From an uncultured Clostridia bacterium (GTDB lineage Bacteria > Bacillota > Clostridia > Christensenellales > UBA1242): 64,000 bases of DNA. Shown here piece after piece: positions 42,609 to 59,596 of the stretch. How positions within the stretch are numbered: the first letter of the stretch is position 1; every line of letters starts with the position of its first letter. The notes under the pieces were generated by a model. It saw nothing but the letters and a program-made list of their open reading frames with translations. It made no database searches and had not been told where the DNA came from. A program made the translations under genes and the position numbers. The DNA lies in contig CALWTH010000011.1 in assembly GCA_944384405.1 (NCBI GenBank), positions 9,904 to 73,903 on the forward strand, read 5' to 3'.

Positions 42609-44150
42609 ATGGGGATAGTTAAATATAGTAAAGCGATATCAATTCCGCTTTCTCTTTATTTGCTTAACATAAAAGATGCACCAATTTTAAAGTATGAAAA
42701 TTTAAGATTTTATGAGAAATACATAGTACTTGCCTTAAAATATGGAATCCAAGCAAATGATTTAAGTGATTTAAAACAGAAGATGTGTGAAATTTTTAAT
42801 ATTAAATATTCTTTTGTAGAAGAATTTATAGAGCACTATAACAATATAGGATTTATTAATTATGATAAAGAAAAGTCTTTATTTTCATTAACTGATTCGT
42901 ATTTACTTGAATATGACAAGAAAAACAATTCCATAATTCGCTCATGCACAAAAGAAAGTTTGTGTGACTTTATTAATATTGTTTACTTTAAAAAATCAAA
43001 TACTTTTCTTTATAATGAGGGTTTTAAAGATTTTATAAAAGACATGAAAAGTTATGAGAAAATTAACGATGAAACGTTTATTCAAATGTGCAAAGCAAAT
43101 GAACAATTATTGTTACTGCTCAATGATATATTAAAAAAAGATTCAATACATGCGATTATAAATAATAATCAGTTTGAAAAATCCAACATAGAAGTTTATG
43201 ATGCCGCAATAAAAGTTGATTGTTTATTAAATTATGCATACGATGGGCAATCGTCTAGTTTACAAAACTATATAATACCAAACTCCATACTTAAAGAAAG
43301 TATTAAAGATATTCTTGACGATACCATTGTTTTAAACTATAAAACTGATTTTGAAATTCCAAAATATGTTAAAGAGCATGAGTTGTATTCAGAAATGAAT
43401 GAAAGGAATAAACTTATCTCAAAGCATGAAGAAGAAATATTAAAAAATAACGAAGCGATTTTTGCAAAAGAAAATATTTTAAATTCGTTATCTATTAGGA
43501 AAAATCTAAAAAATAAAGAAAAAAAGACAATTAAAAAATTAAACAAAGAGGTTGTAGATTTAAAAGAGAAAATAGCAGAATTACAACGAGAAAACATCAA
43601 TTTGACAAATTCAAAAGAAGAATATAGTTTTTTTGACAATACAACAAAAGAAGTTTATTACAAATATTGTGGTAATATGTATTTTGACTATATGATTAGA
43701 CAAATTTGTGTAGTTATTGATAAAACAATTGAAGCACTATCAATTGGTGATAATGAAAATGTAGTTTTGGATTTAGCAAGCATAAGAAGTTGGGTAAACA
43801 AATTGGCTTATGCGATATACGACTATTATTGCGATGGACTAAAAGCAAAAGATTTATCTATGTATTTCCACGATAAATTTAAGCGAATGGAACTGGAAAA
43901 TATTTTGGCTAAGTTTAATATAAAACCTTATGACCTTACCAATATGGAAAAATGTCATAAACTTGTTGATTCTTGCTATCATCAAGGAGAAATAAACAAT
44001 AAAACTAAAATCAACCAAGAAAACATTGCAGATTTTTTAACAATTTCACAACAAGAAAAACGAGATATTTTATTAAGTTATATAAAATTATATAAAGTAA
44101 TTGATTTGACGGAAGAACAAAAGAAAGAAGTTTTAAGAAAGATAATATAG
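42609..44150 (+). CDS. Hypothetical helicase-partner protein
   Basis: Starts immediately after the helicase stop codon; winged-helix-like N-terminus, coiled coil, helical C-terminus. Confidence 0.65.
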   Translation: MGIVKYSKAISIPLSLYLLNIKDAPILKYENLRFYEKYIVLALKYGIQANDLSDLKQKMCEIFNIKYSFVEEFIEHYNNIGFINYDKEKSLFSLTDSYLLEYDKKNNSIIRSCTKESLCDFINIVYFKKSNTFLYNEGFKDFIKDMKSYEKINDETFIQMCKANEQLLLLLNDILKKDSIHAIINNNQFEKSNIEVYDAAIKVDCLLNYAYDGQSSSLQNYIIPNSILKESIKDILDDTIVLNYKTDFEIPKYVKEHELYSEMNERNKLISKHEEEILKNNEAIFAKENILNSLSIRKNLKNKEKKTIKKLNKEVVDLKEKIAELQRENINLTNSKEEYSFFDNTTKEVYYKYCGNMYFDYMIRQICVVIDKTIEALSIGDNENVVLDLASIRSWVNKLAYAIYDYYCDGLKAKDLSMYFHDKFKRMELENILAKFNIKPYDLTNMEKCHKLVDSCYHQGEINNKTKINQENIADFLTISQQEKRDILLSYIKLYKVIDLTEEQKKEVLRKII

Positions 44151-44648
44151 TGCTAATAAACAAAAAATAATTTTTTTGCCAATTAACCGAAGCCGTATTT
44201 ACTGGCGGGACTACGCAAAGTTTGGCTAACAGCAAATTTTTGGGGGACATTCATTGTTGTATTTTCCTATACAAAAATTTCATCATGCTTACAGTTGAAT
44301 AAAAGTAGATTACATTTAGATATTATAGCAAAATGGTATTTTAATCAAACAAAAAACATTTCAACAACCCAAAATGTTTTGTAAACTGTATCCATATCTA
44401 TTCATGAAATTAATTGATATGTATTATTTTATTAAAGGATCAGAAGATACTTTTTGTTTAGTTTGGGATTTAATAAAGATGAATTTAAAGATACAAATGA
44501 TTTTTTAAAATAAATTGATGTTGAAGGCAAAATGTGGGCAAATCTTGTATTAAGTAATTGTTGCAAGAAGCATTTAAAAATATAAAAAGTTGTCTTACAG
44601 GTATTAATCTAAATTCAAATGAGGGAAGCGAAGATTGGGTTTCTATAA

Positions 44649-46238
44649 TTATCGGTTAAGAGAAATTAAATTTTTAGGTATATACATGTATTGTGTTCTA
44701 TATAAAACTTGGTTTCTTTTTTTTATGTAATTTGAAATCCGTTTATTGTTATAAAATTTTTTTAACATATTTTGCTTTGTTAATGATACCTTAGTTTTAT
44801 ACATAACAACCAAATTTGTCGAATTGTCAAGATGTAGTTTTTTGCTAAGAATGGAGTTTCGTGCAAGCTTAAACTCGGCAAGACCAAAACAATCTATATA
44901 CTTAAAGTGTTTTAGAAAGTGTAGTGTTTTTCTTAGGTCAAAATTTGTTTCTGACGGATAGTTGTACATTAATGTAACGGAAGTGATTATATTATTTAGA
45001 TAACAATTTTTTAATATTTTTTTTGCTTGCAAAATATTTATTTGTTTATTCATTTTCTTTAGTAAACTATGGCTTAAGCATTCCAATCCAAAAGAAATTT
45101 CCTTAATCCCACTATGAGCTAGCTTGGCAACTTTGTTAAAATCTAAAAATTCCTTTTGAAATCTTGTTTCAACAATCCAATTTAGTTTTATATTATTTTT
45201 AATTAAAAAATCAGAAAGTTTTGACAAAACTTCAAACTGTACACATTCATCGATAAAATAAATCCCTTGTATATTTTCGGATTGAACAAGATCTTTGATT
45301 TTGTTAAAAATAGAGGTTAAGTTTAATAGTCTGTGTTTTTCATAATATATATACCTATTACAAAATTCACATTTAGAATGAAAGCAACCCAAATTTAAGT
45401 AAAATGGAACAATTTTTATGTTTGAAAGATATTTTTCCAAACACAAATCATCAAAACAAGGCGTGTATAAACTTGTATTTATTTCTGGGGTGTTACTACG
45501 TTTGTAAGTGCTGATTGTATCATTAATTTTAATTAAACAATCAATATAACTTTTTTTAGTAATAACATTGCAAATATTTTCATAATTGCCATGAAACACA
45601 ATGGCATCAAAGTCTGTTTTTTTTAAAATTTCCATTGCGTTGTCTTTGATTTGTGTTAAGTAATCGCCGCCAACAACAATGTAAGTATGCTTAAAATTTT
45701 TTTTAATTAAGTTTGCTAATTTAATGGCGAAAGGAATTTGGTAAGCATAACGGATTGATAAATAAAAAGAATCTTTATTTTTGTATGAGTTTAATTGAGA
45801 AAAAAAAATATCATCAAAAAGAGTACAATCATTTAAGGAATAAGAAATCAGCTCGTTGACTGTCCATAGCTGTTTTTGCGGTGTTATATTTCTTGCTGAC
45901 CATTCCAAATTATGAATATTTGAAATAAATTTTAAAACATTATAAAAAGAAGTATTTAATTTAAAAATATTATGAGGAATTTTTGTTTTATCTGTCAGTA
46001 ATTTTTTTGTATCGTTAATATTTTTTATATCTTCTATTGTATTTATATCACAATCATGTAAATACTTTGAATATTTTTCAGTTAAATATTTTTTATTTAG
46101 GCATTCTTGTAAAAATGAAAGAGTTAAATCATAATGAGTCGAACATATATGAGATTGGTTTAAAATATTCTTTATTATACAATTTTCCAGTTGTGGCATA
46201 TTAAAATTTGAAGCCGGGAGAGAAATTAAATTTATCAT
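44649..46238 (-). CDS. B12-binding-type (class B-like) radical SAM protein
   Basis: VVGG B12-domain segment; GCFHSKCEFC; YFIDE; SFGLE; AAAGGA RBS before ATG 46238. Confidence 0.75.
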   Translation of the reverse strand: MINLISLPASNFNMPQLENCIIKNILNQSHICSTHYDLTLSFLQECLNKKYLTEKYSKYLHDCDINTIEDIKNINDTKKLLTDKTKIPHNIFKLNTSFYNVLKFISNIHNLEWSARNITPQKQLWTVNELISYSLNDCTLFDDIFFSQLNSYKNKDSFYLSIRYAYQIPFAIKLANLIKKNFKHTYIVVGGDYLTQIKDNAMEILKKTDFDAIVFHGNYENICNVITKKSYIDCLIKINDTISTYKRSNTPEINTSLYTPCFDDLCLEKYLSNIKIVPFYLNLGCFHSKCEFCNRYIYYEKHRLLNLTSIFNKIKDLVQSENIQGIYFIDECVQFEVLSKLSDFLIKNNIKLNWIVETRFQKEFLDFNKVAKLAHSGIKEISFGLECLSHSLLKKMNKQINILQAKKILKNCYLNNIITSVTLMYNYPSETNFDLRKTLHFLKHFKYIDCFGLAEFKLARNSILSKKLHLDNSTNLVVMYKTKVSLTKQNMLKKFYNNKRISNYIKKRNQVLYRTQYMYIPKNLISLNR

Positions 46239-46248
46239 GAAATATCCT

Positions 46249-47226
46249 TTATTTAATAATACTATTAACAATCGTTTTTGAAAACAACAAATTTTTTATC
46301 CAAATCTTAATAAAGAATATATTGTTAATGTTATATTTGTTTACGCCAACAAAATTTTTAATTTTAGAATAAGTCTTGTTCATCTTTTCTTCTGTATCAA
46401 AAATCAGTGTTAAAAAGTTTGCACTTGATTTTATAATTTTAATACCGTCAAAACCATTTAAGTTGTCATAAATATAATCTCTGTTTTCCATAATGTACTT
46501 TCTTGTAGAATCAAAAGATTTTAATAATTTGGTGTCATTTAATAGTTTGACAATTATAGAAATTGAATGAGTGGAAATGGAATGAGGAGGAATAAGAGTG
46601 TTTCTTAATCCATTTATTCTTAATTTTGTTATCAAATATCCTGCTCTTAAGCCAGAAGCAATGAATTTTTTAGAGAAACTTCTTGCGATCATAATTCTTT
46701 CATTTTTCATACAAAGGTCAAGCAAATGATTCGGGTTGTTTGAGAAATCTACATATGCCTCATCAATAAAAAGATAACCTTTAAAAATAGATAGAATTTC
46801 ATTTATTTGGGCTAAAGAAAAAATTTCGCCATTAAACCATCGTGGGGATGAAATACAAAGCAGTGAATTTTCACTAGAATTTTTTGTTTTTAATTCCTCT
46901 ATAAATTCAGCCGTAGAAACAGCATCAATATGTGTTGTCTTTTTATTGTGTATTATACAGGTTCTTTCGTATAAGCCAAATTCGATAGATGGCAAAAAAA
47001 TTTCTTCCCATCTACTTAATGGCAAGATTGCCGATATAAGCTGACTAATTCCTGCACTAGCATAAATGTATTCTTTATCTATTTTTAAATCGTTAGAAAT
47101 TGCATTTACCAAAGGATCACTTAATGGGGCTTTGGGATCAAAACAGAAATCTCCATCAATATCCCCAAACTTAAATTTTTTAGACCACTTTTTTAATTTT
47201 TTGTTATATAACCAAACAGATGACAC
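46249..47226 (-). CDS. PLP-dependent class I/II aminotransferase-fold enzyme (HisC/CobD-like)
   Basis: FIDEAYVDF, RSFSK...GLRAGY, SSANF; GAGGTG RBS. Confidence 0.85.
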   Translation of the reverse strand: MSSVWLYNKKLKKWSKKFKFGDIDGDFCFDPKAPLSDPLVNAISNDLKIDKEYIYASAGISQLISAILPLSRWEEIFLPSIEFGLYERTCIIHNKKTTHIDAVSTAEFIEELKTKNSSENSLLCISSPRWFNGEIFSLAQINEILSIFKGYLFIDEAYVDFSNNPNHLLDLCMKNERIMIARSFSKKFIASGLRAGYLITKLRINGLRNTLIPPHSISTHSISIIVKLLNDTKLLKSFDSTRKYIMENRDYIYDNLNGFDGIKIIKSSANFLTLIFDTEEKMNKTYSKIKNFVGVNKYNINNIFFIKIWIKNLLFSKTIVNSIIK

Positions 47227-47276
47227 ATCATCACCTCATAGAAATTATAAATTAAAAACAATTTCATGTCAAATAC

Positions 47277-47305
47277 TTGACTTGTAAATTCATTGTTTAT
47301 AAAAT
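47277..47305 (+). promoter_or_regulatory. Sigma-A promoter of the YcaO operon (leaderless)
   Basis: TTGACT-17-TAAAAT, 7 nt before ATG 47313. Confidence 0.65.
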
Positions 47306-47312
47306 ATTAACA

Positions 47313-48911
47313 ATGATTCGATTAGAAAATGAAATTAGGAAAGATGCTCCATTAAGGTCAACGATCAGGCTGATAAAAAGAATTTTAAAAAAAAATAATA
47401 TAAAATTTAAAGAAAAAGGGTTCAAATCCTTAAATGGTTTTTTTTCTGGAAGAATAGCGTTAGATCGCTATACGGGTGCAAACGGCAAGGGGATAACCAA
47501 AAGTCAGGCAAAAGCATCTGCTTATGGCGAATTGCTTGAAAGGCTACAGACAAATATGCTTTATAAAAAAATAACAGAAAAGAAGACATATATTGTAAAT
47601 AGAAAAAATAAATATATTAATATTGCTTTAAAATCTGCATCACAACAATTTAGAGAAGAGTTTTACAAGTTAGACGATACATATTTTTTTGAAGATGAAT
47701 TTGTGGATTTAGCAAGTGAACAAGCAGAAAAATTGCCAATAAGTGTTATAAATTATTCATGCCATACTAATGGTCTTGCTGCTGGAAATTCGAAAGATGA
47801 GGCATGTGTTCAGGCAATTTGTGAGGTGCTTGAACGATATATATACAAAAAAATATTGTCGTGTAATGTTTCTACAAAAATTGTTATGAACTATGAAAAG
47901 AACTTAACTAAAAATAATAAAAAGATCTTGGATAAAATATGTGAAAAAGGATATGATTTTGAAATAAGATATTGTACGGATTTTTGCTATCCAGTGATTG
48001 CTTTTGTGCTTTATAATAAAGAACATACAAAATATATGTTTACACTTGCCTCAGACATTAATTTTAATATTGCTCTTCAAAGAGCTGTTACTGAAATGTT
48101 TCAAGGTCGCAATATAAAAAATATCAACAATCAAATGTTAGATAAAAACGAGGATATTGAAGAACTTGCAAACAAATATAAATATGATTATAATTCATAT
48201 AATTGGCTCCTTTGCTTTAATTATAATTGTGGTTTAATTCCCAAAAGTGCATTTAGTTTAGAAAAAGTTTCGTTTGCAGCTTTAAACTTTAATAGTTGCA
48301 TTAATTCAAACACAAAGGCATTAGAATGGCTAAAGTCATTAATCAACTCGCACATATATGTGAAAGATTATAATGTATTAGGATTTGATACTGTGCGCGT
48401 TTATATCCCTGGGTTAAGTGAAATTGATTGCTTTGACCAATGTGATTTAATAATTTCTAAAAATCAAGAAAAACTTAAGAATATTTTTTTAGACATTTTA
48501 AACCAATCAGATGAGAATATAAACTTTTTTTTAGATAACATATGGGAATTATGTAAACACATAAAATATCAAAATCTTATTTTACCAAAAAATTTTTTTA
48601 AAGTGGAGGGAACTACAAAATATTTTCAGCTGACCTTTACAAGCCTTGCAATAATTTTGTCTGCTATTGTAAAAAGGAAAAAAGAACTAGCTGATTTATT
48701 ACAATTTCAAATAAACAACTTTCCACTTTCGTTAAAAGCAAGAGAAAATAATTTGTATATTCTAAGCTTGTTACAAGACAGACCTTTAACATTAAAAAAT
48801 AAAAATTTAGAAAATTATTATAAAAACTTATTTTTGAATCCCAAAGAATATTTAAAAAGTTTAAAACCGAAAGTAAAGATAGTGGAATCAAAATTGTTTA
48901 ATAAAATATAA
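47313..48911 (+). CDS. YcaO-like family protein
   Basis: KDAPL, NGKG....AKASAYGELLER, TNGLAAGN..EA..QAICEVLER, RAVTE, RVYIPGLSE. Confidence 0.9.
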   Translation: MIRLENEIRKDAPLRSTIRLIKRILKKNNIKFKEKGFKSLNGFFSGRIALDRYTGANGKGITKSQAKASAYGELLERLQTNMLYKKITEKKTYIVNRKNKYINIALKSASQQFREEFYKLDDTYFFEDEFVDLASEQAEKLPISVINYSCHTNGLAAGNSKDEACVQAICEVLERYIYKKILSCNVSTKIVMNYEKNLTKNNKKILDKICEKGYDFEIRYCTDFCYPVIAFVLYNKEHTKYMFTLASDINFNIALQRAVTEMFQGRNIKNINNQMLDKNEDIEELANKYKYDYNSYNWLLCFNYNCGLIPKSAFSLEKVSFAALNFNSCINSNTKALEWLKSLINSHIYVKDYNVLGFDTVRVYIPGLSEIDCFDQCDLIISKNQEKLKNIFLDILNQSDENINFFLDNIWELCKHIKYQNLILPKNFFKVEGTTKYFQLTFTSLAIILSAIVKRKKELADLLQFQINNFPLSLKARENNLYILSLLQDRPLTLKNKNLENYYKNLFLNPKEYLKSLKPKVKIVESKLFNKI

Positions 48912-48922
48912 AGGAGAAATTT

Positions 48923-49042
48923 ATGGGGAAGGTTGCAAAGAAAAAAAACAAAATTTATATCAAGGAGTTAAAACCAGAGATAACACAATGTAGAATAATA
49001 CAAGTGGAGAAAAAAATAAATGAGAAACAAGCAAAAATATGA
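48923..49042 (+). CDS. 39-aa basic small ORF (not in ORF track)
   Basis: AAGGAG RBS; MGKVAKKKNKIYIKELKPEITQCRIIQVEKKINEKQAKI; overlaps the next start. Confidence 0.45.
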   Translation: MGKVAKKKNKIYIKELKPEITQCRIIQVEKKINEKQAKI

Positions 49043-50252
49043 ACTTGCAGGCTTAAGCCAAAAAATAAGCTTAAATTCTTTCAAAACTCCCTTGTATGTA
49101 TATCTACAAATAAACACCATTTGTAATTTCAATTGCAAATTTTGTTCAAGGGAAAGTATGCCCAACAAATCAATAGATTATTTAGATTTTAAATATATTA
49201 TAGATAGTTTATCCGAGTTCGGCGTTAATGATATTTATATTACAGGAGGAGAGCCTCTTCTTCACCCTCAAATTGATGATATGATTGATTATGCTTTGAC
49301 TAAAAAAATGAACATTTCAATTTTGACAAATGGTTTTTACATAGATAGACATGTTGAAATTTTAAAAAAAGTGGCTTGTTTGAGTGTTTCGCTTCATGGC
49401 GAAAAGGAAACACACAACAAAATTGTGGGATTTAATTGTTATGACAAAATTATAAATAATATAAATTTAATGGTTGGCAAGGTTAATTTAACCATAAATT
49501 ACACCGCATTTAACGAAAATATAGATGAAAAGAATATATTGTCAGTTTATAACTTTTGTGATCATAACAAAATCAAAATGAACGTATCTCGCTACAACGA
49601 TTTAGGGTGTGGAAAAATTAATAAATGCGATTTAGACTTAAATATTTTTATGAAAAATATTTATCATTTGGTTGAAAGAGGATATGATATTGGTGTTAAT
49701 AATTGTATTGCTCCGTGTGTTGTTTCTCCGAAATATCTCCATTTAACGCATGGCTGTGGTGCAGGAAGTATATTTTGTGCGATTGATTATGATTTGAATG
49801 TAAAAATTTGTTCAAGTGCAACTCAAGTGATAAGCAATTTGAAAAAAAATTCATTACAGAAGATTTGGAACAACAAATTATTAAAAACATTTCGGGGACT
49901 GAAATGGTTGCCGATTTACTGTAAATCATGTATAAATCTAGCGCGATGTAGAGGAGGCTGTAGGATTGAAGTTGGTAATAACCTTCTAGGGCTTAATGAT
50001 AAAAATGTTTACGACTTAAATGAAAACACTTGGAGAAAAATTCGAAACAAAAATTTTGAAGTGTGTATTGGTAAAGCAAGGAAAGAAGCAAATTTCTTTA
50101 TTAGTTTATCCACGCCATCAAGACTATTTTCAAAGGAGGTATTAAATGTCTTACAAAAAATACAATCTACCGGAAAAATTTCTGACTTAGAACAATATAA
50201 AGATCTTATTTTATCTCTCTATAGAGATAAAGTTATAAAGGAGAAACAATGA
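49020..50252 (+). CDS. Radical SAM/SPASM peptide-maturase-like protein
   Basis: CNFNCKFC, TGGEP, CGAG...C, CKSC..LARCRGGC. Confidence 0.9.
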   Translation: MRNKQKYELAGLSQKISLNSFKTPLYVYLQINTICNFNCKFCSRESMPNKSIDYLDFKYIIDSLSEFGVNDIYITGGEPLLHPQIDDMIDYALTKKMNISILTNGFYIDRHVEILKKVACLSVSLHGEKETHNKIVGFNCYDKIINNINLMVGKVNLTINYTAFNENIDEKNILSVYNFCDHNKIKMNVSRYNDLGCGKINKCDLDLNIFMKNIYHLVERGYDIGVNNCIAPCVVSPKYLHLTHGCGAGSIFCAIDYDLNVKICSSATQVISNLKKNSLQKIWNNKLLKTFRGLKWLPIYCKSCINLARCRGGCRIEVGNNLLGLNDKNVYDLNENTWRKIRNKNFEVCIGKARKEANFFISLSTPSRLFSKEVLNVLQKIQSTGKISDLEQYKDLILSLYRDKVIKEKQ

Positions 50253-51424
50253 TAAATAAGAGATGTTTGGAAAAAGACAAAAACTTAATTATGTGGCTTA
50301 ACAAATACTTTGTTGTGAATGATTTTACATTAAAACTAATCGAGTTTTTTGATGAAAAGAAAACAAAAAAAGAAATAAGTTCGCTTTTGAATATTAGCAG
50401 ATTTAAAGTTGGAAGATATTATAAAAAAATAGAAAATGAAATAATAAAAAGAGATTTCTATGAAAATAATATTAATTTAAAAACACCAATAAAAGTACAA
50501 TGGAAGGTGACAAAGAAATGTAATTTGAAATGTAAGCATTGTTATTTGGGTGAACTTAATAATTTTGAGCCTTCAAAAGAGTTGGTTGATAAAATATTAA
50601 GTGAGATTTTAAAATCAAATGTTATGGAGGTGACATTGTCTGGTGGAGAATGCTTGACCTGCCAATACATTGATTATATCGCAAATACACTGCTATCTCA
50701 TGACATAAAAATAACGATTTTTACAAATGGTTTATTACTAAATAAGTTTGTAGAAAAAATTGATACAAAATACAAGGATAGGGTTGTCATAAATGTTAGC
50801 GTTGATGGCTTAAAAAACACTCATGAACAAATTCGCGGGAATAATACTTTTGACAAAACTATATCTAATATTGAATTTGCCGCATCAAAAGGTTTTTCAA
50901 TAACATCAGCAACAGTGGTTAATAGTATCAATTATGATGATATTATAGACATGATTGTTTTATTAAGGTCAAAAGGGGTTAAACATATTCAGCTGTCAAA
51001 TATTATAATTAGGGGTCGAGCTGAAAAAAAATTAGAATTGAGCATTGAAAAACAAATGGCTATGAAACAAAGATTGTTAAATTTATATAAAGAACACCCT
51101 GAATATGAGCATATTTTCTATTCAGAAGTACCAGATGAAGATGGTAAACGGAAAGTTTTTAAAATTGAAAATGGTAATTCTGAATTTGTTGGTAATGACA
51201 ATTGGAAGTGCACCGCAGGACTGGCAAGGGTAACAATAAATGAAGATGGCCGTGTTTATTGCTGTCCATTCTTAGAAAAAAGCTACTTAGGTGATTTAAA
51301 ATGCAACACTTTAGAAGAAATATGGAACAAGAAAGAAAGATATGAATTTTTGGATTTTATAATAAAAAGTAATACTGACAGAGTTTGCGTTGCAATCAAA
51401 CAAAATAAAGGAGAGGATAAATGA
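50249..51424 (+). CDS. Radical SAM/Twitch protein with RRE-like N-terminal domain
   Basis: CNLKCKHC, SGGE, CTAG...GRVYCCP...LEEIWN; N-terminal ~70-aa winged-helix-like segment. Confidence 0.88.
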   Translation: MINKRCLEKDKNLIMWLNKYFVVNDFTLKLIEFFDEKKTKKEISSLLNISRFKVGRYYKKIENEIIKRDFYENNINLKTPIKVQWKVTKKCNLKCKHCYLGELNNFEPSKELVDKILSEILKSNVMEVTLSGGECLTCQYIDYIANTLLSHDIKITIFTNGLLLNKFVEKIDTKYKDRVVINVSVDGLKNTHEQIRGNNTFDKTISNIEFAASKGFSITSATVVNSINYDDIIDMIVLLRSKGVKHIQLSNIIIRGRAEKKLELSIEKQMAMKQRLLNLYKEHPEYEHIFYSEVPDEDGKRKVFKIENGNSEFVGNDNWKCTAGLARVTINEDGRVYCCPFLEKSYLGDLKCNTLEEIWNKKERYEFLDFIIKSNTDRVCVAIKQNKGEDK

Positions 51425-53139
51425 TATCGGTTGAGAAATTTTATAATAATAAATCAAAAGTTGAAGAGTTTATTTCAAAAAGAGCATTTTGTAGTAGAAT
51501 GTTGTTTCAAATGATTATAAATGAAAAATTTGCAGATGAAATAAATAATTACATTGATTTTTTTAATAAAAAAATATTTGATAGTAAAAAAATTGACAAA
51601 ATTCTAAACAAAATTCACGCTAAAACGGTAAAGTATTACGAAAAGGCCTACAATGAAAGCAAGAATAAGGTAAAGAATATTTTAATGTCACTGGCATATT
51701 TTTACTTCTTAGAGAGTGTTGATGAGCATAGTTCATTTTCTGTTGGGTTGCAAGAAGAAATTAAGAAAAAATATGGTGAAGATAAATACTTGGATATTAT
51801 TTCAAAAGTTGACAAAATTTACCTATCTAATGATGTTAAAAATATAATTCAACAAAGTAACGAAGATATTGACTTAAATTGTCAATTAATTGCGACATAT
51901 TTGGTATTAAAAAAATTCCAGGATTCTCAGCATGATTTTTTTGAGGGCGAATATGGGAAATTTACCGAAGAAGTACAACGAAGGTACTGTAAAAATTATT
52001 CTGCAACACCATTTGATATTGATTTTTTAACTTTAAGAAAATTTTTGTTTAAAATTATGCAGAAAAACAAAATTTTATCATTGGATCAAGTAAGTCTTTT
52101 ATGTGGACTATATATAAAAAAATATGTTATTAAATTAGTTGGTGGAAAAATGTTTGGGCTAGGTATGCTCAATTTACATGGTATAAAAGTTCCGTTCACG
52201 GTTTGTATTCCAACAAATACAAATTTAAAAAACGAAGATCTAAGTTTTCTTGAATCAAAATGTACAAAATTTTCAGTCAGGAGTTCTGCTGATATTGAAG
52301 ATGGAGAAGAAAATTCTTTTGCAGGAATGTTTGATTCATATTTAGATGTTAAGTTTGAAAATTTACCAAAAGCAATACATGATGTTAAAAATTCTGTAAA
52401 CAATTCTCGTTTAAAAGCATATATAAAAAAGACCAAACTTGATAAGCCACATATGGCAGTTGTAATACAAGAGTTTGTTGAGCCTGAATATTCGGGAGTT
52501 TGGATTGGAAATGATAAAGACGATGGAATTTTAGAGTGGGTTAAAGGAAATGGAGAAAAGCTTGTTTCTGGCTCCAGTACTCCTGTTTCCGAAGTGTGGA
52601 ACAAAAAACAATGTGAGGGCCCTTCATTAAAATCTGATAATGATGTTGCTATAGGGGAACAACTGATTTGCTTTCAAAATAAATTAAATGTTATCGCTGA
52701 TTTTGAATGGATGGTTTTAAATGGAAAGCTTGTTATGTTGCAGTATAGGCCAGTAACAAGAAAAATCAAGATAGAGACTATTAAATCTGAAGAAAATAAT
52801 GATGGAGTTATAAAAGGCACGCCAGCATCTTCTGGAATTGTTGAAGCTAAGTTTTATATTGCGGATGATTATACTGAAAAAATCCAAACAGACAAAATTC
52901 TTGTTGCATATGCAACCGATCCAAATTGGATTCCACATATTATAAAATCCAAAGGGGTAGTAACTGTAACTGGTGGTTTTTTATGCCACGCAGCAATTAT
53001 TTGTAGAGAACTTGGAATTCCATGCGTTACTGGTATAGGCAATGAAGGATTAAGTGTTTTAAGCAATAATTTGGAAAAAGTATTGACTTTAAATGGGAAT
53101 CATGGTAGCATTAGTTTAGGAGGGAGTAGTAGTGATTAA
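51421..53139 (+). CDS. PEP synthase/PPDK-like phosphotransferase (ATP-grasp plus phospho-His swivel domain) with extra N-terminal helical domain
   Basis: VGGK, VRSSA..ED....SFAG, GEKLVSG, DFEW...LQYRPVT, GGFLCHAAIICRELGIP. Confidence 0.88.
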   Translation: MISVEKFYNNKSKVEEFISKRAFCSRMLFQMIINEKFADEINNYIDFFNKKIFDSKKIDKILNKIHAKTVKYYEKAYNESKNKVKNILMSLAYFYFLESVDEHSSFSVGLQEEIKKKYGEDKYLDIISKVDKIYLSNDVKNIIQQSNEDIDLNCQLIATYLVLKKFQDSQHDFFEGEYGKFTEEVQRRYCKNYSATPFDIDFLTLRKFLFKIMQKNKILSLDQVSLLCGLYIKKYVIKLVGGKMFGLGMLNLHGIKVPFTVCIPTNTNLKNEDLSFLESKCTKFSVRSSADIEDGEENSFAGMFDSYLDVKFENLPKAIHDVKNSVNNSRLKAYIKKTKLDKPHMAVVIQEFVEPEYSGVWIGNDKDDGILEWVKGNGEKLVSGSSTPVSEVWNKKQCEGPSLKSDNDVAIGEQLICFQNKLNVIADFEWMVLNGKLVMLQYRPVTRKIKIETIKSEENNDGVIKGTPASSGIVEAKFYIADDYTEKIQTDKILVAYATDPNWIPHIIKSKGVVTVTGGFLCHAAIICRELGIPCVTGIGNEGLSVLSNNLEKVLTLNGNHGSISLGGSSSD

Positions 53140-53254
53140 ATTTATTAAAAAATTATTTTCTAGGAAAAAGGATGTTTTGATTGATATTAATTCAATTGAT
53201 AATTCTTTGTCTTTGTCTATGGCTGGACATGGTGATTGCTCTGATCAATGTTAA
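53132..53254 (+). CDS. Candidate 40-aa RiPP precursor peptide (not in ORF track)
   Basis: GGAGGGAG RBS; GTG start overlapping the upstream gene end; MIKFIKKLFSRKKDVLIDINSIDNSLSLSMAGHGDCSDQC. Confidence 0.7.
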   Translation: MIKFIKKLFSRKKDVLIDINSIDNSLSLSMAGHGDCSDQC

Positions 53255-53316
53255 TCAAAATTTATATTGTTTTTTATTAAAAACAAAATACAAACAGTTT
53301 AAAAAATATATATAAG

Positions 53317-53358
53317 AAAAACACACTCTCTTAGATTGTTCTAAGAGAGTGTGTTTTT
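53317..53358 (+). terminator. Intrinsic terminator closing the YcaO operon
   Basis: AAAAACACACTCTCTTAGA-loop-TCTAAGAGAGTGTGTTTTT. Confidence 0.85.
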
Positions 53359-53377
53359 AACATCTCCAAATTGCTGA

Positions 53378-53545
53378 GTTGAAATAATAAAGTTGAAGTT
53401 TGTCCTAATAAAGTACATATGCTAATTTCAATTCCACCAAATTTAATCATGAGTCGAACTAATGTATCAGAAATATGCAAATATGAAAATCAAATATAGG
53501 AATAGAGAATTTTGGTACGTGGATATTATGTAAACAAGTAGAGGA
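53378..53545 (+). pseudogene. tnpA: IS200/IS605 TnpA (Y1 transposase) relic
   Basis: Broken frames give EVCPNKVHMLISIPP, MYQKYANMKIKYRNREFW and RGYYV. Confidence 0.8.
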
Positions 53546-53872
53546 AATTACCAACTTGCCCAGCACAAAAATTGGATTGTGCTCTGCCCACTAAAATCCT
53601 TTAAAACACTAGCAAATAAGATGGTGTTTTTTCTTTTGCTGTCAATCTTAAAATTCACTGACACCTACTGACACCATGCTCAATATTTATGAAAAATTCT
53701 GCCCATTTTAGACTTTCTAGGACTATCTAAAACTAAATATATTATGAATTGAATTTTGTATATTTGAGTTTTCGTAATCAAAAACAATATACAAGAAAGT
53801 ATATAAGAAAATATACAAGATAATTGACTTTTAATGTGAGAATAGGTTACAGTGTAAAAGGAGAAATGATTT

Positions 53873-54688
53873 ATGGAATATTATAAAAAAATAGATAAAT
53901 CCACATTTGATGGCAGGATTACTGTTCCCAAAAAATATTGGATATACTTTATAGATGTTAATAAAGAGACATGGGGTACACATAAAAAAATTTGCATAAA
54001 ATTTAAAAATAAAAAATATAATGGAAAATTTTCTTTTGTTTTACAATCAACAGGAAGAAAAGTTTTTCAAATATTTTTAGATACTGAACTTGTTAAAGTA
54101 TTAAAAAAAGAATTTATTCAATCTTATATTGCAATAGAAAGCCAAAAATTGCTTAACAAGAATGGGAAATTTCATACTGAACTTATTGGCGGAAGTCAAG
54201 AGGTGATTGTCTTTGAAAAGCTAAATGAAACTGAAATTGAATTGTCGACATTTATAAAAGTTGAAACTCCTTATGATAATTTATTTAAGCACCTTGTTGA
54301 TTCGAATGTGTTTGGTTGGTTAAGTTTAGAGAAACAAGATCAGATGATTACTAAATATACAAAATGGATGGATATCTCCGAGTTAAAGAAGCATGAAGAT
54401 CAAAATCATGTTATTTATTATTTAATTGATGAAATTAATAAGGAAGTATACATTGGCAGTGCAACAAGACTTGGAGATAGGGTTAAGATTGGAAGAAAGG
54501 AAATCTCAGGATGGAATAAGTTTATGTATGCGATTATACATCCTAAGTTTCATCAGTACATAAAGGAAATTGAATATCATACTATAATGAGTTTTGCGGC
54601 ATTTATGAAAAATAATGGTAATAAAGCAAATTGTGGTATATCTGATTACACATTAGTAAACAAAGATTACAAATATTACAGAGATTAA
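53873..54688 (+). CDS. GIY-YIG nuclease-like protein
   Basis: VIYYLID....EVYIGSA..L..R in the C-terminal part; AAGGAG RBS. Confidence 0.6.
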   Translation: MEYYKKIDKSTFDGRITVPKKYWIYFIDVNKETWGTHKKICIKFKNKKYNGKFSFVLQSTGRKVFQIFLDTELVKVLKKEFIQSYIAIESQKLLNKNGKFHTELIGGSQEVIVFEKLNETEIELSTFIKVETPYDNLFKHLVDSNVFGWLSLEKQDQMITKYTKWMDISELKKHEDQNHVIYYLIDEINKEVYIGSATRLGDRVKIGRKEISGWNKFMYAIIHPKFHQYIKEIEYHTIMSFAAFMKNNGNKANCGISDYTLVNKDYKYYRD

Positions 54689-54736
54689 AATTAATTTTTT
54701 TTGGTATAAAATAATTTTTTGTTAAGAGGTATGTTA

Positions 54737-55724
54737 TTGACGAAAAATATATTCCGCCTTATGAAATAACTGATGAGATGTTAGAATTAGTGTCCGAAAT
54801 TATGGAAAATTTAGGAAAATTAAGTGGAGTTAATGAACTTGAGAAATTTCCAAGACTTCGCAGAGTGAATAGGATAAAGTCTATTCATTCTTCTCTTGCG
54901 ATTGAAAACAACACTCTTTCCCTCGAGCAAGTGACAGATGTTATTGATGGAAAGCGAGTGTTCGGACCAAATGAAGATATAGTTGCAGTTCAAAATGCAA
55001 ATTTGGCATACAGAGAACTTGAAAATGTAAATCCTTATAGCATTAATGACTTGTTAAAAGTCCACGAAATAATGATGAACGGACTTGCAAACGAGGCGGG
55101 GAAAATTAGGACAGGACAAGTTGGAGTTTATAATGAACACGGAAAAGTTGTTCATTTTGCTCCACCTGCGGAGTTTGTTCCAGAACAACTAGGACAACTT
55201 TTTGACTGGATAAAGACTAGTCCAGCAAATATGCTTATTAAGTCTAGTGTTTTTCATTATGAATTTGAGTTTATCCACCCATTTCGTGATGGGAATGGAA
55301 GAATGGGAAGGCTTTGGCAAACAGTGCTCCTTGCAAGTTGGAAGCCAATCTTTGCTTGGATACCTATTGAAAGTATCATAAAAGATAATCAAGAAGATTA
55401 TTACAATGCAATAACACTGTCAACAAGCCAGGCGAAATCAAACATTTTTATCGTGTTTATGCTAGATGTGATAAACAAAGCAATCAAAGATATAATAACC
55501 GACACAAGAAATCACTATAACCATATAAACAATCAAATCACAGAACTTATGAAAGTAATTGAAAGTTATCCGCAATCTGCAACAGAACTTATGCAAAAAC
55601 TAAATCTAAAGTCTCGTGTTGGTTTCAGAAAAATTACTTACAACCAGCCCTAGATGCTGGACTAATCGGCATGAACGAACCCGGCAAACCAACCAGCAAA
55701 AACCAAAAGTATTTTAGGATTTAG
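54737..55724 (+). pseudogene. Fic family protein with two apparent -1 frameshifts in A-runs
   Basis: HPFRDGNGRMGR motif; N-terminus (TTG 54737, ...YIPPYEIT) and C-terminus (YLQPALDAGLI...PTSKNQKY) are out of frame with the 54778-55653 ORF. Confidence 0.7.
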
Positions 55725-55994
55725 ATATTATAACATGAAATATGAAATTTAATAATAAAAATATTATAACAAACTAATTATAGGAAATATATTCTGGCTC
55801 TATATAAAAATTATAGTGTTTATATTAATCTTATAAAATTTATAATCTTTTGTAGATATCTTTTTTATTTTCTGTATAAATACAAATAGTTGAAAAATAT
55901 AAAATTTTAGAATTAAAATTACATAATAAGTTGCATTTTTCTTATTTATATAATATCATTATATCAAGATATATAGATATCATTAGGAGTTTAT

Positions 55995-56156
55995 ATGAAA
56001 AATACAAAATCTTTAATTATACGTATGTCTCCTGAACTTCATAAACAAATAAAACTTATTGCTGTTAAAAATGATAAAAGTATTAATGAATATGTTGTGG
56101 AAGCTATAAAAAAAATTGTAAAAGTTGAAGAAGGGAGAAAAAATGAAAAGCAATAA
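55995..56156 (+). CDS. Ribbon-helix-helix (Arc/HicB-like) DNA-binding protein, 53 aa (not in ORF track)
   Basis: AGGAG RBS; LIIRMSPELHKQIKLIAVKNDKSINEYVVEAI. Confidence 0.75.
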   Translation: MKNTKSLIIRMSPELHKQIKLIAVKNDKSINEYVVEAIKKIVKVEEGRKNEKQ

Positions 56157-57348
56157 TTACACTTTTATTGATTTATTTGCAGGTGCTGGAGGACTTTCTT
56201 TAGGATTCTGCAATGCAGGATATACTGGAATTTTTGCGATAGAAAAAAATAAGGATGCTTTTAGTACTTTATATTTTAACTTAATTTCTAAAAATAAATT
56301 TAATTGGCCACAATGGCTACCAAGAACTGAATTAGATATTGTCGAAGTCCTTAAAACATATAAGAAAGAATTATATAAACTTAAGGGGGAAATTGATATT
56401 GTTGTAGGAGGTCCACCTTGCCAAGGATTTTCAATGGCTGGAAGAAGGGATCATAGTGATTTTAGGAATACTATGGTAAATAATTATATAGAGTTTGTGA
56501 AATGCGTAAAGCCTAAATATATCCTTTTAGAAAACGTTCATGGTATTTCTGTAGATTTTAAATTAAATAATGGAGATAAAATAAAATACTCGGAAGTTGT
56601 AATTGAAGGATTAAAAAAATTAGGATATAATATAAAAGTTAAAGAGATTTTTATGGATGAGTACGGTATTCCTCAAAGAAGAAAAAGATTTATTTTGGTT
56701 GGAAGTTTGAAAAAAAATATAGATGATTTTTTTGAAAAACTTGACAAGTATAAGTTAAAATTTCTCAAGAAAAAACAGCTAAATATAAGAACTACAGTAG
56801 GCGATGCTATTTCAGATTTGTTAGAGAGTAATGGTATCTATAAATGTCCAGATTGTAAACAGTTTTTTTATAGTGGTTATTATGGTAATATTAATACATC
56901 ATATCAAAGGTTTATGAGAAAAAAAATCAAAAGTGACGAAAATCCAGATAGCCATAGATTTGCGAATCATAGTAAACAAATCCAAGAAATGCAGAAATTT
57001 ATGATTGAACACTTAGAACATGGAAAAAGATATAAACCATCAGACAATTTGGTTCCAAATTTAAAAAGGAGAGGGGTTGTTTTGTTGGATCCTAATAGCC
57101 CAGCTCCAACAGTTACGACTCATCCCGATGATTTTGTACATTATAGTGAACCTAGAATTTTAACAGTTCGTGAATTGGCAAGAATTCAAAGTTTTCCAGA
57201 TTGGTATCAGTTTAAAGGGAAATATACAACAGGTGGGGAATTAAGGAAAAAAGACGTACCAAGATTTACACAAGTTGGTAATGCAGTTCCGCCATTGTTT
57301 GCAGAACAATTGGCAGAAATATTTAAGGAGTTTTTATACAATGATTAA
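56143..57348 (+). CDS. DNA (cytosine-5)-methyltransferase
   Basis: FAGAGG, GGPPCQGFS, ENV, QRRKR, RELARIQSFP, GNAVPP. Confidence 0.95.
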   Translation: MKSNNYTFIDLFAGAGGLSLGFCNAGYTGIFAIEKNKDAFSTLYFNLISKNKFNWPQWLPRTELDIVEVLKTYKKELYKLKGEIDIVVGGPPCQGFSMAGRRDHSDFRNTMVNNYIEFVKCVKPKYILLENVHGISVDFKLNNGDKIKYSEVVIEGLKKLGYNIKVKEIFMDEYGIPQRRKRFILVGSLKKNIDDFFEKLDKYKLKFLKKKQLNIRTTVGDAISDLLESNGIYKCPDCKQFFYSGYYGNINTSYQRFMRKKIKSDENPDSHRFANHSKQIQEMQKFMIEHLEHGKRYKPSDNLVPNLKRRGVVLLDPNSPAPTVTTHPDDFVHYSEPRILTVRELARIQSFPDWYQFKGKYTTGGELRKKDVPRFTQVGNAVPPLFAEQLAEIFKEFLYND

Positions 57349-59596
57349 AAAATTAAATTTTAAAGTTAGTGCTGGTTTAAAAAATATTATTGGAAAAGAA
57401 TTAATAACAAATAAGTTTGTTGCTATTTTTGAATTAGTTAAAAATTCTTTTGATGCGAACTCAAAAAAGGTGGATATAACCTTTAATTATAAAAAAGATG
57501 AAATAGATAGTATTGAAATACAAGATTATGGGAAGGGGATGGACTCTAATCAGATTATAAATAATTGGTTAAATGTAGCATATTCTGACAAAAAACTTGA
57601 GAATGCCAGAAAAAAGGGCATAAAATTTGAAAGAGAACAATTAGGTGCAAAAGGTGTTGGTAGGTTTTCATGCGATAGAGTTGGCTCTATTGTTGATTTG
57701 TATACACGAAAATATAATGAAGATGTGGTTCATCATGTTTCAATTAATTGGGATAACTTTGAAAATGTTGATGAACAAAGTTTTTTAGATATACCTGTTG
57801 AATATGAAGATCTTATTATTGAGACATTTCCTAAGCAAGGAACTTTAATTAAAATTTCTAATTTAAGGGAAAAATGGGATAGGAATGAATTATTGTCTTT
57901 AAAAAGAATGTTAATGAAACTTATTTCTCCAAATACAGACAACTCATCAGAATTTTCAATAGAATTACATGCAGAATTAGAGTTAGAAAGAGATAAAATG
58001 TATAATAATGATAGAGATATTGTTAATGGTGTTATAAAGAATACTTTATTTGAATCATTAAATATTAAAACAGTAGCTTTAACTGTGGACATCGACCCTA
58101 TAGGGAAAGAAATAATTACATCTTTAAATGATAAAGGACAGGAAGTTTTCTATATAAAAGAGAAGAATGAGGATTACACAACACTTAAAGATATTCATTT
58201 AAAATTATTTTATATGAATCGTAAGGCAAAGTTGTTGTTTTCAAAAATAATGGGAATATCACAAGTTTCATATGGGAATATATTCGTGTTTAAAAATGGA
58301 TTTAGGATATTACCATATGGTGAAATCGACGATGATTTCTTTGGCATTAATTTAAGACAACAACAAGGAACTAGAAGATATTTTGGTACAAGAGATTTAG
58401 TAGGAAGAATAGAAATAAATGGTGAAGCTAAAGGATTTGTTGAAGTATCTAGTAGAGACAAGGGATTTATAAAATCAAGACAAGTAGATGAGTTAAAAAA
58501 ATTTTTTGTTGATAAAATGAAGATCCTTGAGACATATGTTGTAGATGTTTTAGATTGGGGAGATCCTGATTCTGAAATGTTTAGTGTTGCAAATATAAAT
58601 TTTGAAAAACTAGTAAAACAAATTGCTGGTATAACAAAGAAAACAAATCCGATAGAACTTAGATATGATGAAAATATAATTGCAGAAGTTTCAAAAAAGG
58701 TAGCAGATTCTTCAATTCAAAATTCACTTAATAAAATATCTTTGATAGCCGAAAAAAATAATAATGAACAGCTATTATCATTAATTAATTCTACAAGAAA
58801 GAGAGTAGAAGATTTACAAGAAGTAAATCGAAAACTTATTTCAAAAAATGAAGAGCAAAGAAAACAACATGAAGATACAAAACAGGAACTACAAAGAATA
58901 ACAAATCAAAACTATTTTTTGGAAAATACGACAAATGAGGATTTTGTAAAAGCTAAAGAAATAATACATTTGAATATGTTGTTCGCAAATAAGATTAAAG
59001 AATATATTGAAATAATATTCGACAATATAAAAAATAAAAAAGAAGACAATATTTTAAAAAATCTTGCACAGGTTGACTTTTTGGCTAGTAAAATATATTC
59101 GATAAGTAATTTTGGTTTAAAAGCAAATTTTTCATTAAAGTCAGATATACAATTAGATTCAGATTTAGTAGCTTTTATCAATGAATATGTAAGAAATATA
59201 TATGATAGATCTCCAAATTTAGGAATGAAAGTTACAATAACAAACAATTTGGACAAAGAAATTAAATTAAAGTTTTCAGCATCAGAAATAGTTGCAGTCA
59301 TTGAAAACTTAATTAGCAATTCTAATAAAGCTCATGCTAAAAACTTATATTTAAATTTTAGTAATGATGAAAAATATTTAATTTTAGATGCTTTAGATGA
59401 TGGGGACGGGTTGAATAAATCTATAAGAAATAAAGAGGAGATATTTAAATTAGGTTATACTTCTACAGAGGGATCAGGAATTGGACTTTATACGATATCA
59501 AAAATATTAAAATCTATGAATGGAACAATAGAATTAATAGATACAAATTTTTCTTTTGGACTAAGGATGAAAATAGCATATGGACATAAAATTTAA
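57341..59596 (+). CDS. MORC/MutL-like GHKL ATPase fused to a coiled coil and histidine-kinase-type ATPase
   Basis: ELVKNSFDA, DYGKGM, GAKGVGRFS; C-terminal ENLISNS, DDGDG, FKLGY, GSGIGL. Confidence 0.85.
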   Translation: MIKKLNFKVSAGLKNIIGKELITNKFVAIFELVKNSFDANSKKVDITFNYKKDEIDSIEIQDYGKGMDSNQIINNWLNVAYSDKKLENARKKGIKFEREQLGAKGVGRFSCDRVGSIVDLYTRKYNEDVVHHVSINWDNFENVDEQSFLDIPVEYEDLIIETFPKQGTLIKISNLREKWDRNELLSLKRMLMKLISPNTDNSSEFSIELHAELELERDKMYNNDRDIVNGVIKNTLFESLNIKTVALTVDIDPIGKEIITSLNDKGQEVFYIKEKNEDYTTLKDIHLKLFYMNRKAKLLFSKIMGISQVSYGNIFVFKNGFRILPYGEIDDDFFGINLRQQQGTRRYFGTRDLVGRIEINGEAKGFVEVSSRDKGFIKSRQVDELKKFFVDKMKILETYVVDVLDWGDPDSEMFSVANINFEKLVKQIAGITKKTNPIELRYDENIIAEVSKKVADSSIQNSLNKISLIAEKNNNEQLLSLINSTRKRVEDLQEVNRKLISKNEEQRKQHEDTKQELQRITNQNYFLENTTNEDFVKAKEIIHLNMLFANKIKEYIEIIFDNIKNKKEDNILKNLAQVDFLASKIYSISNFGLKANFSLKSDIQLDSDLVAFINEYVRNIYDRSPNLGMKVTITNNLDKEIKLKFSASEIVAVIENLISNSNKAHAKNLYLNFSNDEKYLILDALDDGDGLNKSIRNKEEIFKLGYTSTEGSGIGLYTISKILKSMNGTIELIDTNFSFGLRMKIAYGHKI

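Follow-up and report, generated by a model that had tools for sequence, protein, structure and literature searches.

The streptide, or KxxxW, systems (StrA and StrB) combine a short precursor peptide, made up of a basic leader and a conserved core, with a radical S-adenosylmethionine (SAM) enzyme of the SPASM type. In the ranthipeptides and SCIFF peptides (PapB and CteB), as in the QhpC/QhpD system, a SPASM radical-SAM enzyme is likewise paired with a core holding Cys and Asp, and thioether bonds are formed from Cys to Asp or Glu in peptides that contain several Cys residues and C-x3-D repeats. A further point of comparison among the peptides that are made on ribosomes and modified after translation (RiPPs) is given by the daptides, described in the available part of PMC12338566 with a class-III aminotransferase (PF00202), an NAD-dependent decarboxylase, a SAM N-methyltransferase, a C-terminal Thr, and a tailoring YcaO protein. 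Here we analyze pepA, a small gene for a 40-residue precursor-like peptide (positions 53132–53254, plus strand), in a stretch of 64,000 nucleotides from an uncultured Clostridia bacterium (contig CALWTH010000011.1, positions 9,904–73,903; this whole stretch is hereafter designated the window). The gene is always accompanied by those for a SPASM radical-SAM enzyme (rSAM1), an E. coli-type YcaO protein, and a dikinase-like phosphotransferase (hereafter the dikinase).

The pepA peptide differs from the streptide precursors in lacking the Lys...Trp pair, having no Trp at all, and in having Gly, Cys, and Asp as the invariant residues of its family; its cluster adds a YcaO protein, a B12-binding-type radical-SAM enzyme, and a pyridoxal phosphate (PLP) enzyme. 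A K-x3-W core together with a TIGR04080-type cyclase was found only in four related loci (L054–L057) described below, and the transporter/protease gene given for the streptide operon in the available part of PMC5491770 has no counterpart in the pepA cluster. Compared with the ranthipeptides and SCIFF peptides, the pepA family has one invariant Cys and a C-x-D spacing, and neither a multi-Cys core nor, among the best family matches listed, a maturase scoring as a PapB or SCIFF enzyme was found. The likeness to the daptides, as far as the available part of their description goes, is an analogy only: a set of oxidizing enzyme, aminotransferase, and methylase tracks the C-terminal residue, and a YcaO protein is present. 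The pepA cluster differs in that its PLP enzyme belongs to class I/II (PF00155), its other enzymes are of the radical-SAM type, and the C-terminus is Cys or Asp.

From the comparisons reported below, we consider it probable, at roughly 0.75, that pepA is the ribosomal precursor of an undescribed RiPP family, carried on mobile cassettes among metagenome-assembled genomes of small-genome gut Bacilli and Clostridia. It would then count as a RiPP system whose precursor family and one type of tailoring enzyme are both new. A search of the literature in full text, with supplements, articles without a CC license, and about 1.7 million PMC articles outside its scope, returned no description of the cluster, of this combination of enzymes, or of the pepA and pepB motifs.

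Structure and conservation of the pepA gene

The pepA gene starts with GTG, comprises 40 codons, and encodes VIKFIKKLFSRKKDVLIDINSIDNSLSLSMAGHGDCSDQC (first codon read as M). An earlier note on this DNA had remarked on a strong ribosome-binding site, a start overlapping the end of the pyruvate phosphate dikinase (PPDK)-like gene, and a position just inside a terminator, all of which were borne out. Thus, GGAGG stands 8 nt 5′ of the GTG as a Shine–Dalgarno (SD) sequence, and the GTG overlaps by 8 nt the last codons and TAA stop of the 572-residue PPDK_N/PEP-utilizer gene (51421–53139). A 19-bp perfect inverted repeat (53317–53358; assigned to neither strand, listed on the minus strand in the scan for inverted repeats) begins 62 nt after the pepA stop. 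As plus-strand RNA, this hairpin folds strongly (−33.7 kcal/mol; z −7.56; 0 of 200 shuffled sequences as good), and its 3′ arm terminates in UUUUU; it is probably a bidirectional terminator closing the operon. The listing of open reading frames (ORFs) holds 93 of at least 30 residues that overlap positions 44000–58000, and the pepA ORF by itself is no better than chance; its conservation, which includes a synonymous excess, exceeds chance. The case for pepA therefore depends on comparison with other genomes.

In a genome of the same genus (G014), a dikinase-like gene 89% identical to that of the window is followed by a 40-residue ORF with an ATG start, whose product shows four amino-acid changes (the start-codon residue included) and whose core codons are changed synonymously. 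Scanning one genome per species gave 26 loci (L032–L057) covering nearly the whole dikinase including its N-terminal domain (N-domain), and pepA was found in 15 of them by a motif scan and a peptide hidden Markov model (HMM), with 15 HMM matches at E ≤ 2.2e-9 and the next best ORF at E 0.055. Homologous YcaO/radical-SAM clusters thus do carry a conserved ORF, the point on which the earlier note had staked its proposal. Thirteen of the 15 pepA-bearing loci are intact. The other two, L036 and L042, are decayed clusters with fragmented enzymes, in which pepA is frameshifted or altered (ending ...GNGNCSDK in L036). Among the 11 loci without pepA, the contig edge was reached in L037 and L053 is a 4.2-kb fragment; in L034, L039, L041, L043, and L046 the dikinase is present and the partner genes were not matched (tblastn, 1e-5); and L054–L057 form the sister system treated below.

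Across the loci, pepA occupies three cluster positions, namely after the dikinase gene, between the genes for rSAM2 (a second radical-SAM enzyme) and the PLP enzyme, and between those for rSAM1 and YcaO, and it is retained at each of them. Codon differences among the copies are chiefly synonymous and at the third position; for example, the pepA genes of L032 and L051 show 19 synonymous and 3 non-synonymous codon differences (2, 3, and 19 differences at codon positions 1, 2, and 3, respectively). An SD sequence precedes all seven of the type-1 copies (defined below) that were checked, and in the aligned copies the identity to the window peptide falls to 32%. Because pepA is found in 15 loci and in G014, is kept after relocation, and shows the synonymous excess, it is a conserved gene, and the codon pattern gives strong evidence that it is translated and under purifying selection.

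The pepA system is rare. Searched alone against 401 genomes of the order, pepA gave a significant match only in G000, and 24 further matches (E 0.018–0.79) were set aside as noise, lying inside unrelated long frames or containing stops. The pepA profile likewise matched only G000 among 400 scored genomes of the class. A scan of metagenome contigs with the dikinase alignment kept 80 loci, with no new pepA locus among them; only L112–L114 are family-like (36–39%), and L112 repeats the peptide of L057. A minus-strand peptide was suspected downstream of the dikinase in L044, L045, L047, L048, and L053, because the plus-strand frame looked conserved there, and was rejected, since the stretch is really the C-terminus of the convergent YcaO gene with its CPNCxxC motif.

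Leader, core, and tail of the pepA peptides

The 15 aligned peptides are conserved in a basic N-terminus (MIKFIKKLF.RKK type) and in a C-terminal core and vary in between, with Gly32, Cys36, and Asp38 invariant in all 15. In the window peptide, a basic, amphipathic leader (about residues 1–31) precedes Gly32 and the core HGDCSDQC. The leader/core architecture proposed in the earlier note is therefore supported by this pattern and by the YcaO, radical-SAM, and dikinase genes with which pepA travels. The note had also seen the only His, both Cys residues, and two Asp residues in a compact C-terminal segment; in the window copy this is so, the last eight residues holding His33, Cys36, Cys40, Asp35, and Asp38.

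A profile search over 5.8 billion proteins (E ≤ 10) gave 101 matches, with 94 clusters at E < 1e-3 and, after clustering at 50%, 30 representatives at E ≤ 0.001. The matches, recorded as predicted proteins, are 32–66 residues long, mostly 36–48, and the only five that bear a name are all called ‘hypothetical protein’. The ending G-x3-C-x-D, in part of them followed by x-C, is shared by 91 of the 101, which fall into type 1, that of the window (...MAG(N/H/S/D)G(N/D)CSDxC; 31 peptides), type 2 (...ELGGNYC(S/Q/E/G)DxC; 35), and type 3, which ends at Asp (...LGGNYCQD; 24), one peptide having another tail. In these 91 peptides, the core occurs in 22 variants. His33 is replaced by N, G, S, or D in most members, Asp35 by N or Y, and the second Cys of the CxxxC pair, Cys40, is missing in 24 of the 91. 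His33, Asp35, and Cys40 of the window peptide, judged by this alignment, are thus not family features, and the specific chemistries suggested in the earlier note agree with the family only in part: without conservation of His33 and Cys40, an H-x-D cyclophane and a CxxxC metal site fall away as common features, and a Cys–Asp link or a modification at Cys36 appears possible. The L-G-G or M-A-G preceding the core resembles a double-glycine leader site; a double-glycine leader with a C39 exporter was considered and rejected, no Peptidase_C39 having been found in G000.

Enzymes encoded in the pepA cluster

The plus-strand operon of the window runs in the order YcaO, rSAM1, rSAM2, and dikinase, and a PLP enzyme and a B12 radical-SAM enzyme are encoded on the minus strand. 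The cluster enzymes look intact in their radical-SAM/SPASM cysteines, in His523 of the dikinase, and in the acidic motifs of YcaO.

The dikinase (51421–53139, plus strand; 572 residues), assigned from Pfam/NCBIfam matches, invariant residues, the nearest structures, and a model of its N-domain, consists of an all-helical N-domain (residues 1–235), a PPDK_N ATP-grasp domain, and a swivel His domain in which Cys522 and His523 are invariant; the phosphoenolpyruvate (PEP)/pyruvate-binding barrel is absent. It scored 143 bits against the PEP synthase model (cut-off, 598), and a PEP synthase/PPDK test likewise gave 47 against 843. Full-length relatives occur at 40–59% identity, and 710 proteins matched at E ≤ 1e-10 among 8000 candidates scored. 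The nearest solved sequences, 5fbs and 5hv1, are deposited as ‘phosphoenolpyruvate synthase’, and we take them to be rifampin phosphotransferase. With the rifampin phosphotransferase, PEP synthase, and PigC-type enzymes, the dikinase shares the PPDK_N ATP-grasp domain and the PEP-utilizer mobile domain with its invariant His; it differs from them in its length (572 versus 867–883 residues), in its domain order, in starting with a new 235-residue helical domain, and in having no rifampin-binding or PEP/pyruvate domain.

The N-domain is predicted with a mean local confidence (pLDDT) of 90.4, and Foldseek found no match in the PDB better than E 0.72. A search of the ESM Atlas gave scores of 0.92 to unnamed clusters, one of which carries PF27448 (Rph_4th) on 21% of its members, a weak lead. 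The invariant residues of the domain include E98, E102, D131, and D168, and these acidic residues would suit the basic leader of the pepA peptide. A complex prediction for the dikinase (A1) and the pepA peptide (A2) scored 0.00 against a mark of 0.32, was run without controls, and counts neither way. On contig C7 of G000 (L005:1293–8660, minus strand), a paralogous PPDK_N and swivel-domain protein of 634 residues begins with the catalytic domains and has a long extension at its C-terminus. The row of genes to which it belongs also encodes a ThiF-family protein, an SBP_bac_5 protein, a class I/II aminotransferase, and an ABC-F ATPase. This row is another uncharacterized cluster, and G016 has the same type of protein.

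rSAM1 (49020–50252, plus strand; CNFNCKFC and CxxCx5Cx3C motifs) was assigned as a radical-SAM/SPASM enzyme from Pfam/NCBIfam matches and locus comparison and occurs in all three cluster types. rSAM2 (50249–51424, plus strand), assigned in the same way and from a model, has a C-terminal Cys-rich domain of the SPASM/twitch type and is confined to clusters whose pepA peptide ends in x-C. CxxxCxxC motifs and SPASM cysteines are present in the radical-SAM enzymes of the cluster. The nearest solved relatives of both rSAM1 and rSAM2 are RiPP maturases (SkfB, 6efn; SuiB, 5v1q), and SkfB and SuiB are also the best fold matches of the rSAM2 model (SuiB over 372–384 alignment columns). The N-terminal extension of rSAM2, about 80 residues, was modeled at low confidence as beta-beta-alpha-alpha-alpha (mean pLDDT of 10-residue blocks, 37 to 83), and in this model it may be like a RiPP recognition element (RRE). 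Against the PapB model NF047865, rSAM2 scored 60 bits (cut-off, 340), and neither TIGR03974 nor TIGR04080 was among the best 25 of the 50 and 61 families matched by rSAM1 and rSAM2.

The YcaO-domain protein (47277–48911, plus strand), of the E. coli YcaO type, was assigned from Pfam/NCBIfam matches, locus comparison, and the nearest structures, 4q84 (E 3e-22) and 6pe3 (E 7e-11), with which its GE..ER and EV.ER acidic motifs align. It shares the ATP-binding domain and acidic motifs with E. coli YcaO, the accessory factor of the S12 methylthiotransferase, and with MJ1094, the YcaO of McrA thioamidation; it differs in being encoded in a peptide cluster and in having neither a TfuA nor an E1-like partner. 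Its scores were 127 bits for the S12-accessory equivalog (cut-off, 700) and 51 bits for TIGR03604, the SagD type (cut-off, 219). No ThiF/E1-like domain was found in the six cluster enzymes, and TfuA (PF07812) was not found in G000 (85% complete), a control genome being matched. The C-terminal PxPxP motif of azoline-forming YcaO proteins, as given in the available part of PMC12338566, is likewise missing, the protein ending ...VESKLFNKI. This YcaO protein thus lacks, by motifs and scores, the partner and the family score of azoline-forming enzymes; it shows neither the SagD-type cyclodehydratase with E1-like/ThiF-like partner of the thiazole/oxazole-modified microcin (TOMM) systems nor, in the window, the adjacent TfuA of thioamidated RiPPs. 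The type-2 YcaO proteins (minus strand; L044:9771–11366, L045:9731–11320, L047, L048, and L053) end in a Cys-rich CPNCxxCx5C...W segment, which that of the window does not have.

Since its homologues align from about residue 18–21, the true YcaO start is perhaps the ATG at 47313. Between the genes for the PLP enzyme and YcaO lies a divergent promoter-like region (47227–47312, assigned to neither strand) with TTGACA-17-TATAAT on the minus and TTGACT-17-TAAAAT on the plus strand, both being consensus matches only; in the region, 58 promoter-like sites were found against 50.6 expected. The plus-strand site ends about 7 nt before the ATG at 47313, which has no SD sequence ahead of it, and by this consensus match only the YcaO mRNA may therefore be leaderless.

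The HisC/CobD-like class I/II PLP enzyme (PF00155; 46249–47226, minus strand; SFSKK lysine motif) and the B12-binding-type radical-SAM enzyme (44649–46271, minus strand) were both assigned from Pfam/NCBIfam matches and locus comparison. Each is conserved in 10 of the 15 loci, and the PLP enzyme gene is divergent in the window and co-directional in other loci. The best family of the B12 enzyme is the RiPP C-methyltransferase TIGR03975, matched far below cut-off. These two divergent genes, missed by the earlier note, belong by their recurrence to the cluster.

Cluster types and the second small gene, pepB

A second small gene, pepB (48923–49042, plus strand; 39 residues), identified by its recurrence upstream of rSAM1 and its database relatives, carries the motif KELKPE(I/M)TQCR. 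Its ORF was not among the items of the earlier note. It is preceded by the SD sequence AAAGGAG, overlaps the start of rSAM1 with its 3′ end, and always lies directly upstream of rSAM1 (window, L032, L033, L037, L038, L051, L044, L045, L047, and L048, and as a fragment in L042). Eight residues are invariant in 10 sequences, and the 93 database clusters at E < 1e-3 include none with a functional name. No Rfam family was found at E ≤ 0.1 in window positions 43000–55000, and L044 and L047 gave only tRNAs; the conservation seen upstream of rSAM1 is therefore better explained by the pepB ORF than by an RNA.

All nine type-1 and type-2 loci with full context (window, L032, L033, L038, L051, L044, L045, L047, and L048) carry rSAM1, rSAM2, the PLP enzyme, the B12 radical-SAM enzyme, the dikinase, YcaO, and pepB. 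The three type-3 loci with context (L040, L049, and L050) have rSAM1, YcaO, and the dikinase, whereas rSAM2, the HisC-like enzyme, the B12 enzyme, and pepB are missing from all three; L040 and L049 additionally encode a small radical-SAM enzyme of 264–272 residues, and L040 an unrelated aminotransferase of 510 residues. The minimal clusters L040, L049, L050, and L052 have pepA without pepB and keep rSAM1, YcaO, and the dikinase. The x-C tail of pepA co-varies with pepB, rSAM2, the PLP enzyme, and the B12 radical-SAM enzyme, an observation rather than a statistic, as it rests on two or three clades and not on independent events.

The only other set of ORFs in more than three loci comprises homologues of an L049 ORF with Resolvase and Recombinase domains, present in 4 of the 15. 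Recombinase-like ORFs flank the cluster in L032, L040, L049, and L051, with an integrase in L049, and pairs of tRNA genes stand at the cluster edge in L047 (2372–2520) and L044 (13923–14076). The flanking tRNA genes and recombinases are consistent with a mobile cassette. The window cluster sits in a defense/mobile island (38622–44150 and 53873–59596). The island encodes a 1328-residue helicase matching Mokosh MkoA (PADLOC E 5.7e-66) and, after it, a 513-residue protein without a Pfam or PADLOC match; the downstream part encodes a Fic-motif protein (HPFRDGNGR), a protein with a C5 DNA methyltransferase motif (GGPPCQGFS), and a 773-residue protein without a PADLOC match. In the PADLOC search, no cluster enzyme fell into a defense family, barring generic radical-SAM similarity to pVip models.

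A sister system with KGDGW peptides

In L054–L057 and L112, a dikinase homologue (35–37% identity) adjoins a radical-SAM enzyme and a short peptide with the ending ...(R/H)F(A/S)KGDGW (L054:6567–6668, L055:6579–6683, L056:6349–6450, L057:251–331, and also L112). In L054–L057, the homologue is full-length, N-domain included, and comes directly after the other two, and in L054, L055, and L057 the ORF of the radical-SAM enzyme extends into the dikinase gene. For the two sister radical-SAM enzymes scanned, the KxxxW cyclase TIGR04080 was the best family, below cut-off in both cases (L057, E 7e-89; L055, E 4.6e-43), and two of the four sister peptides scanned matched the KxxxW-pheromone model (1e-5 and 2e-4). 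KGDGW is the Lys–Trp-cyclized motif of streptide-type peptides in the available part of PMC5491770. The sister system is thus apparently an undescribed streptide variant with a phosphotransferase. Since dikinases stand beside both pepA and the KGDGW peptides, the family partners ribosomal peptides of two unrelated precursor families.

Discussion

If pepA is a RiPP precursor, its leader would dock the peptide on the maturases, the docking site being, as a guess, the acidic invariant residues of the helical dikinase N-domain and, where present, the RRE-like N-terminus of rSAM2. rSAM1 would act at the invariant pair of Cys36 and Asp38, by radical cross-linking or by some other modification; a thioether from the Cys sulfur to an Asp carbon is our first guess at the product, and a tentative one, with the odds somewhat against it. 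YcaO with ATP would activate the backbone amide beside Cys36, leading to a thiazoline, thioamide, or amidine. The dikinase would move the β-phosphate of ATP to His523 and then to the pepA peptide, where the group activated may be the Asp38 carboxylate. In the x-C cores, an accessory module of rSAM2, the B12 radical-SAM methylase, the HisC-like PLP enzyme, and pepB would work on the tail or on pepB itself. Should Gly32 be the site of leader cleavage, a heavily modified product of only 5–8 residues would result.

Several observations weigh against a RiPP precursor or against the details just given. All matches of the cluster enzymes to named equivalogs and RiPP maturase families lie far below the curated cut-offs, so that no chemistry is transferable from them; no Pfam or NCBIfam family matched pepA; the PqqD/RRE models matched no cluster enzyme at E ≤ 0.01; and the few clades behind the x-C co-variation limit what it says about the accessory module. 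No transporter, exporter, protease, or immunity gene is common to the 15 loci compared, and the genome without a detectable Peptidase_C39, G000, is 85% complete; the lack of an exporter, protease, and immunity gene is unusual for a secreted RiPP and leaves a cofactor-like or intracellular role open. Moreover, pepB is, by its alignment, conserved at least as strongly as pepA, and some of the cluster enzymes could have it as their actual substrate.

One alternative is that pepA is a sacrificial scaffold, like those of pyrroloquinoline quinone (PQQ) or mycofactocin, rather than the precursor of a secreted peptide. Only its last few residues would then be converted, and a small cofactor or signal derived from them would be set free within the cell. 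The very short and nearly invariant core (22 variants in 91 peptides), the lack of a conserved exporter, protease, or immunity gene and of any C39 peptidase found, and a PLP enzyme and phosphotransferase typical of small-molecule metabolism would all suit such a role. We nevertheless judge it unlikely, because the patchy, cassette-like distribution (G000 only among the 400 class and 401 order genomes; recombinase-like genes at 4 of 15 loci) is better suited to an accessory trait than to a cofactor, the neighborhood holds no conserved dependent enzyme, and the PqqE and mycofactocin maturase models were matched far below their cut-offs.

A more elaborate form of the RiPP reading, which we regard as improbable in its entirety, makes pepA and pepB a two-peptide system that combines the dikinase, radical-SAM, and YcaO enzymes with a daptide-like trio to give a ring product of 5–8 residues. 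Here the leader would be removed at Gly32 and the core N/H-x-x-C-x-D would become a compact ring: the swivel-histidine dikinase, its own helical domain binding the leader, would phosphorylate the Asp38 carboxylate, and a radical-SAM Cys–Asp link with backbone activation by YcaO would complete the ring. In the x-C variants, a radical-SAM decarboxylase, the PLP transaminase, and the B12 methylase would rework the C-terminal Cys. The product, without exporter or protease, would have an intracellular role or serve as a signal that diffuses, and the cassette would spread on recombinase-borne islands among minimal-genome gut bacteria. If this were true, the PPDK/rifampin-phosphotransferase fold would gain a new role as a RiPP carboxylate activator.

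The motif of pepB shows even stronger conservation (eight residues invariant across 10 sequences), and without exception the gene is directly upstream of rSAM1. It could also be, then, that pepB or a non-peptide compound is the substrate of the enzymes and that pepA is a small accessory or regulatory protein, such as an adaptor, inhibitor, or immunity peptide. This seems very unlikely to us, as L040, L049, L050, and L052 have pepA without pepB and yet rSAM1, YcaO, and the dikinase, and as pepA shows the precursor pattern of conserved leader, variable linker, and conserved C-terminal core. That pepA is a chance, untranslated frame in AT-rich DNA at the operon end, where short ORFs are common (93 of at least 30 residues in 14 kb), is close to refuted by its retention in 15 loci and a same-genus genome down to 32% identity with an invariant core, its survival of relocation, its synonymous excess, and the SD sequence at 7 of 7 type-1 copies checked.

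Should pepA be the RiPP precursor that we consider it to be, it would define a new family that unites a SPASM radical-SAM enzyme, an E. coli-type YcaO protein, and a PPDK-like phosphotransferase, joined in some clusters by a B12 radical-SAM and a PLP enzyme. The helical N-domain of the dikinase is confidently folded and without a solved relative, and this uncharacterized branch of the PEP-utilizing superfamily gains a directly testable hypothesis. The finding is relevant, too, to the E. coli-type YcaO proteins, which are poorly understood. The short and almost unvarying core makes synthesis and heterologous reconstitution practicable. As for the hosts, which are uncultured gut Bacilli and Clostridia with reduced genomes, specialized metabolism is almost unknown in them.

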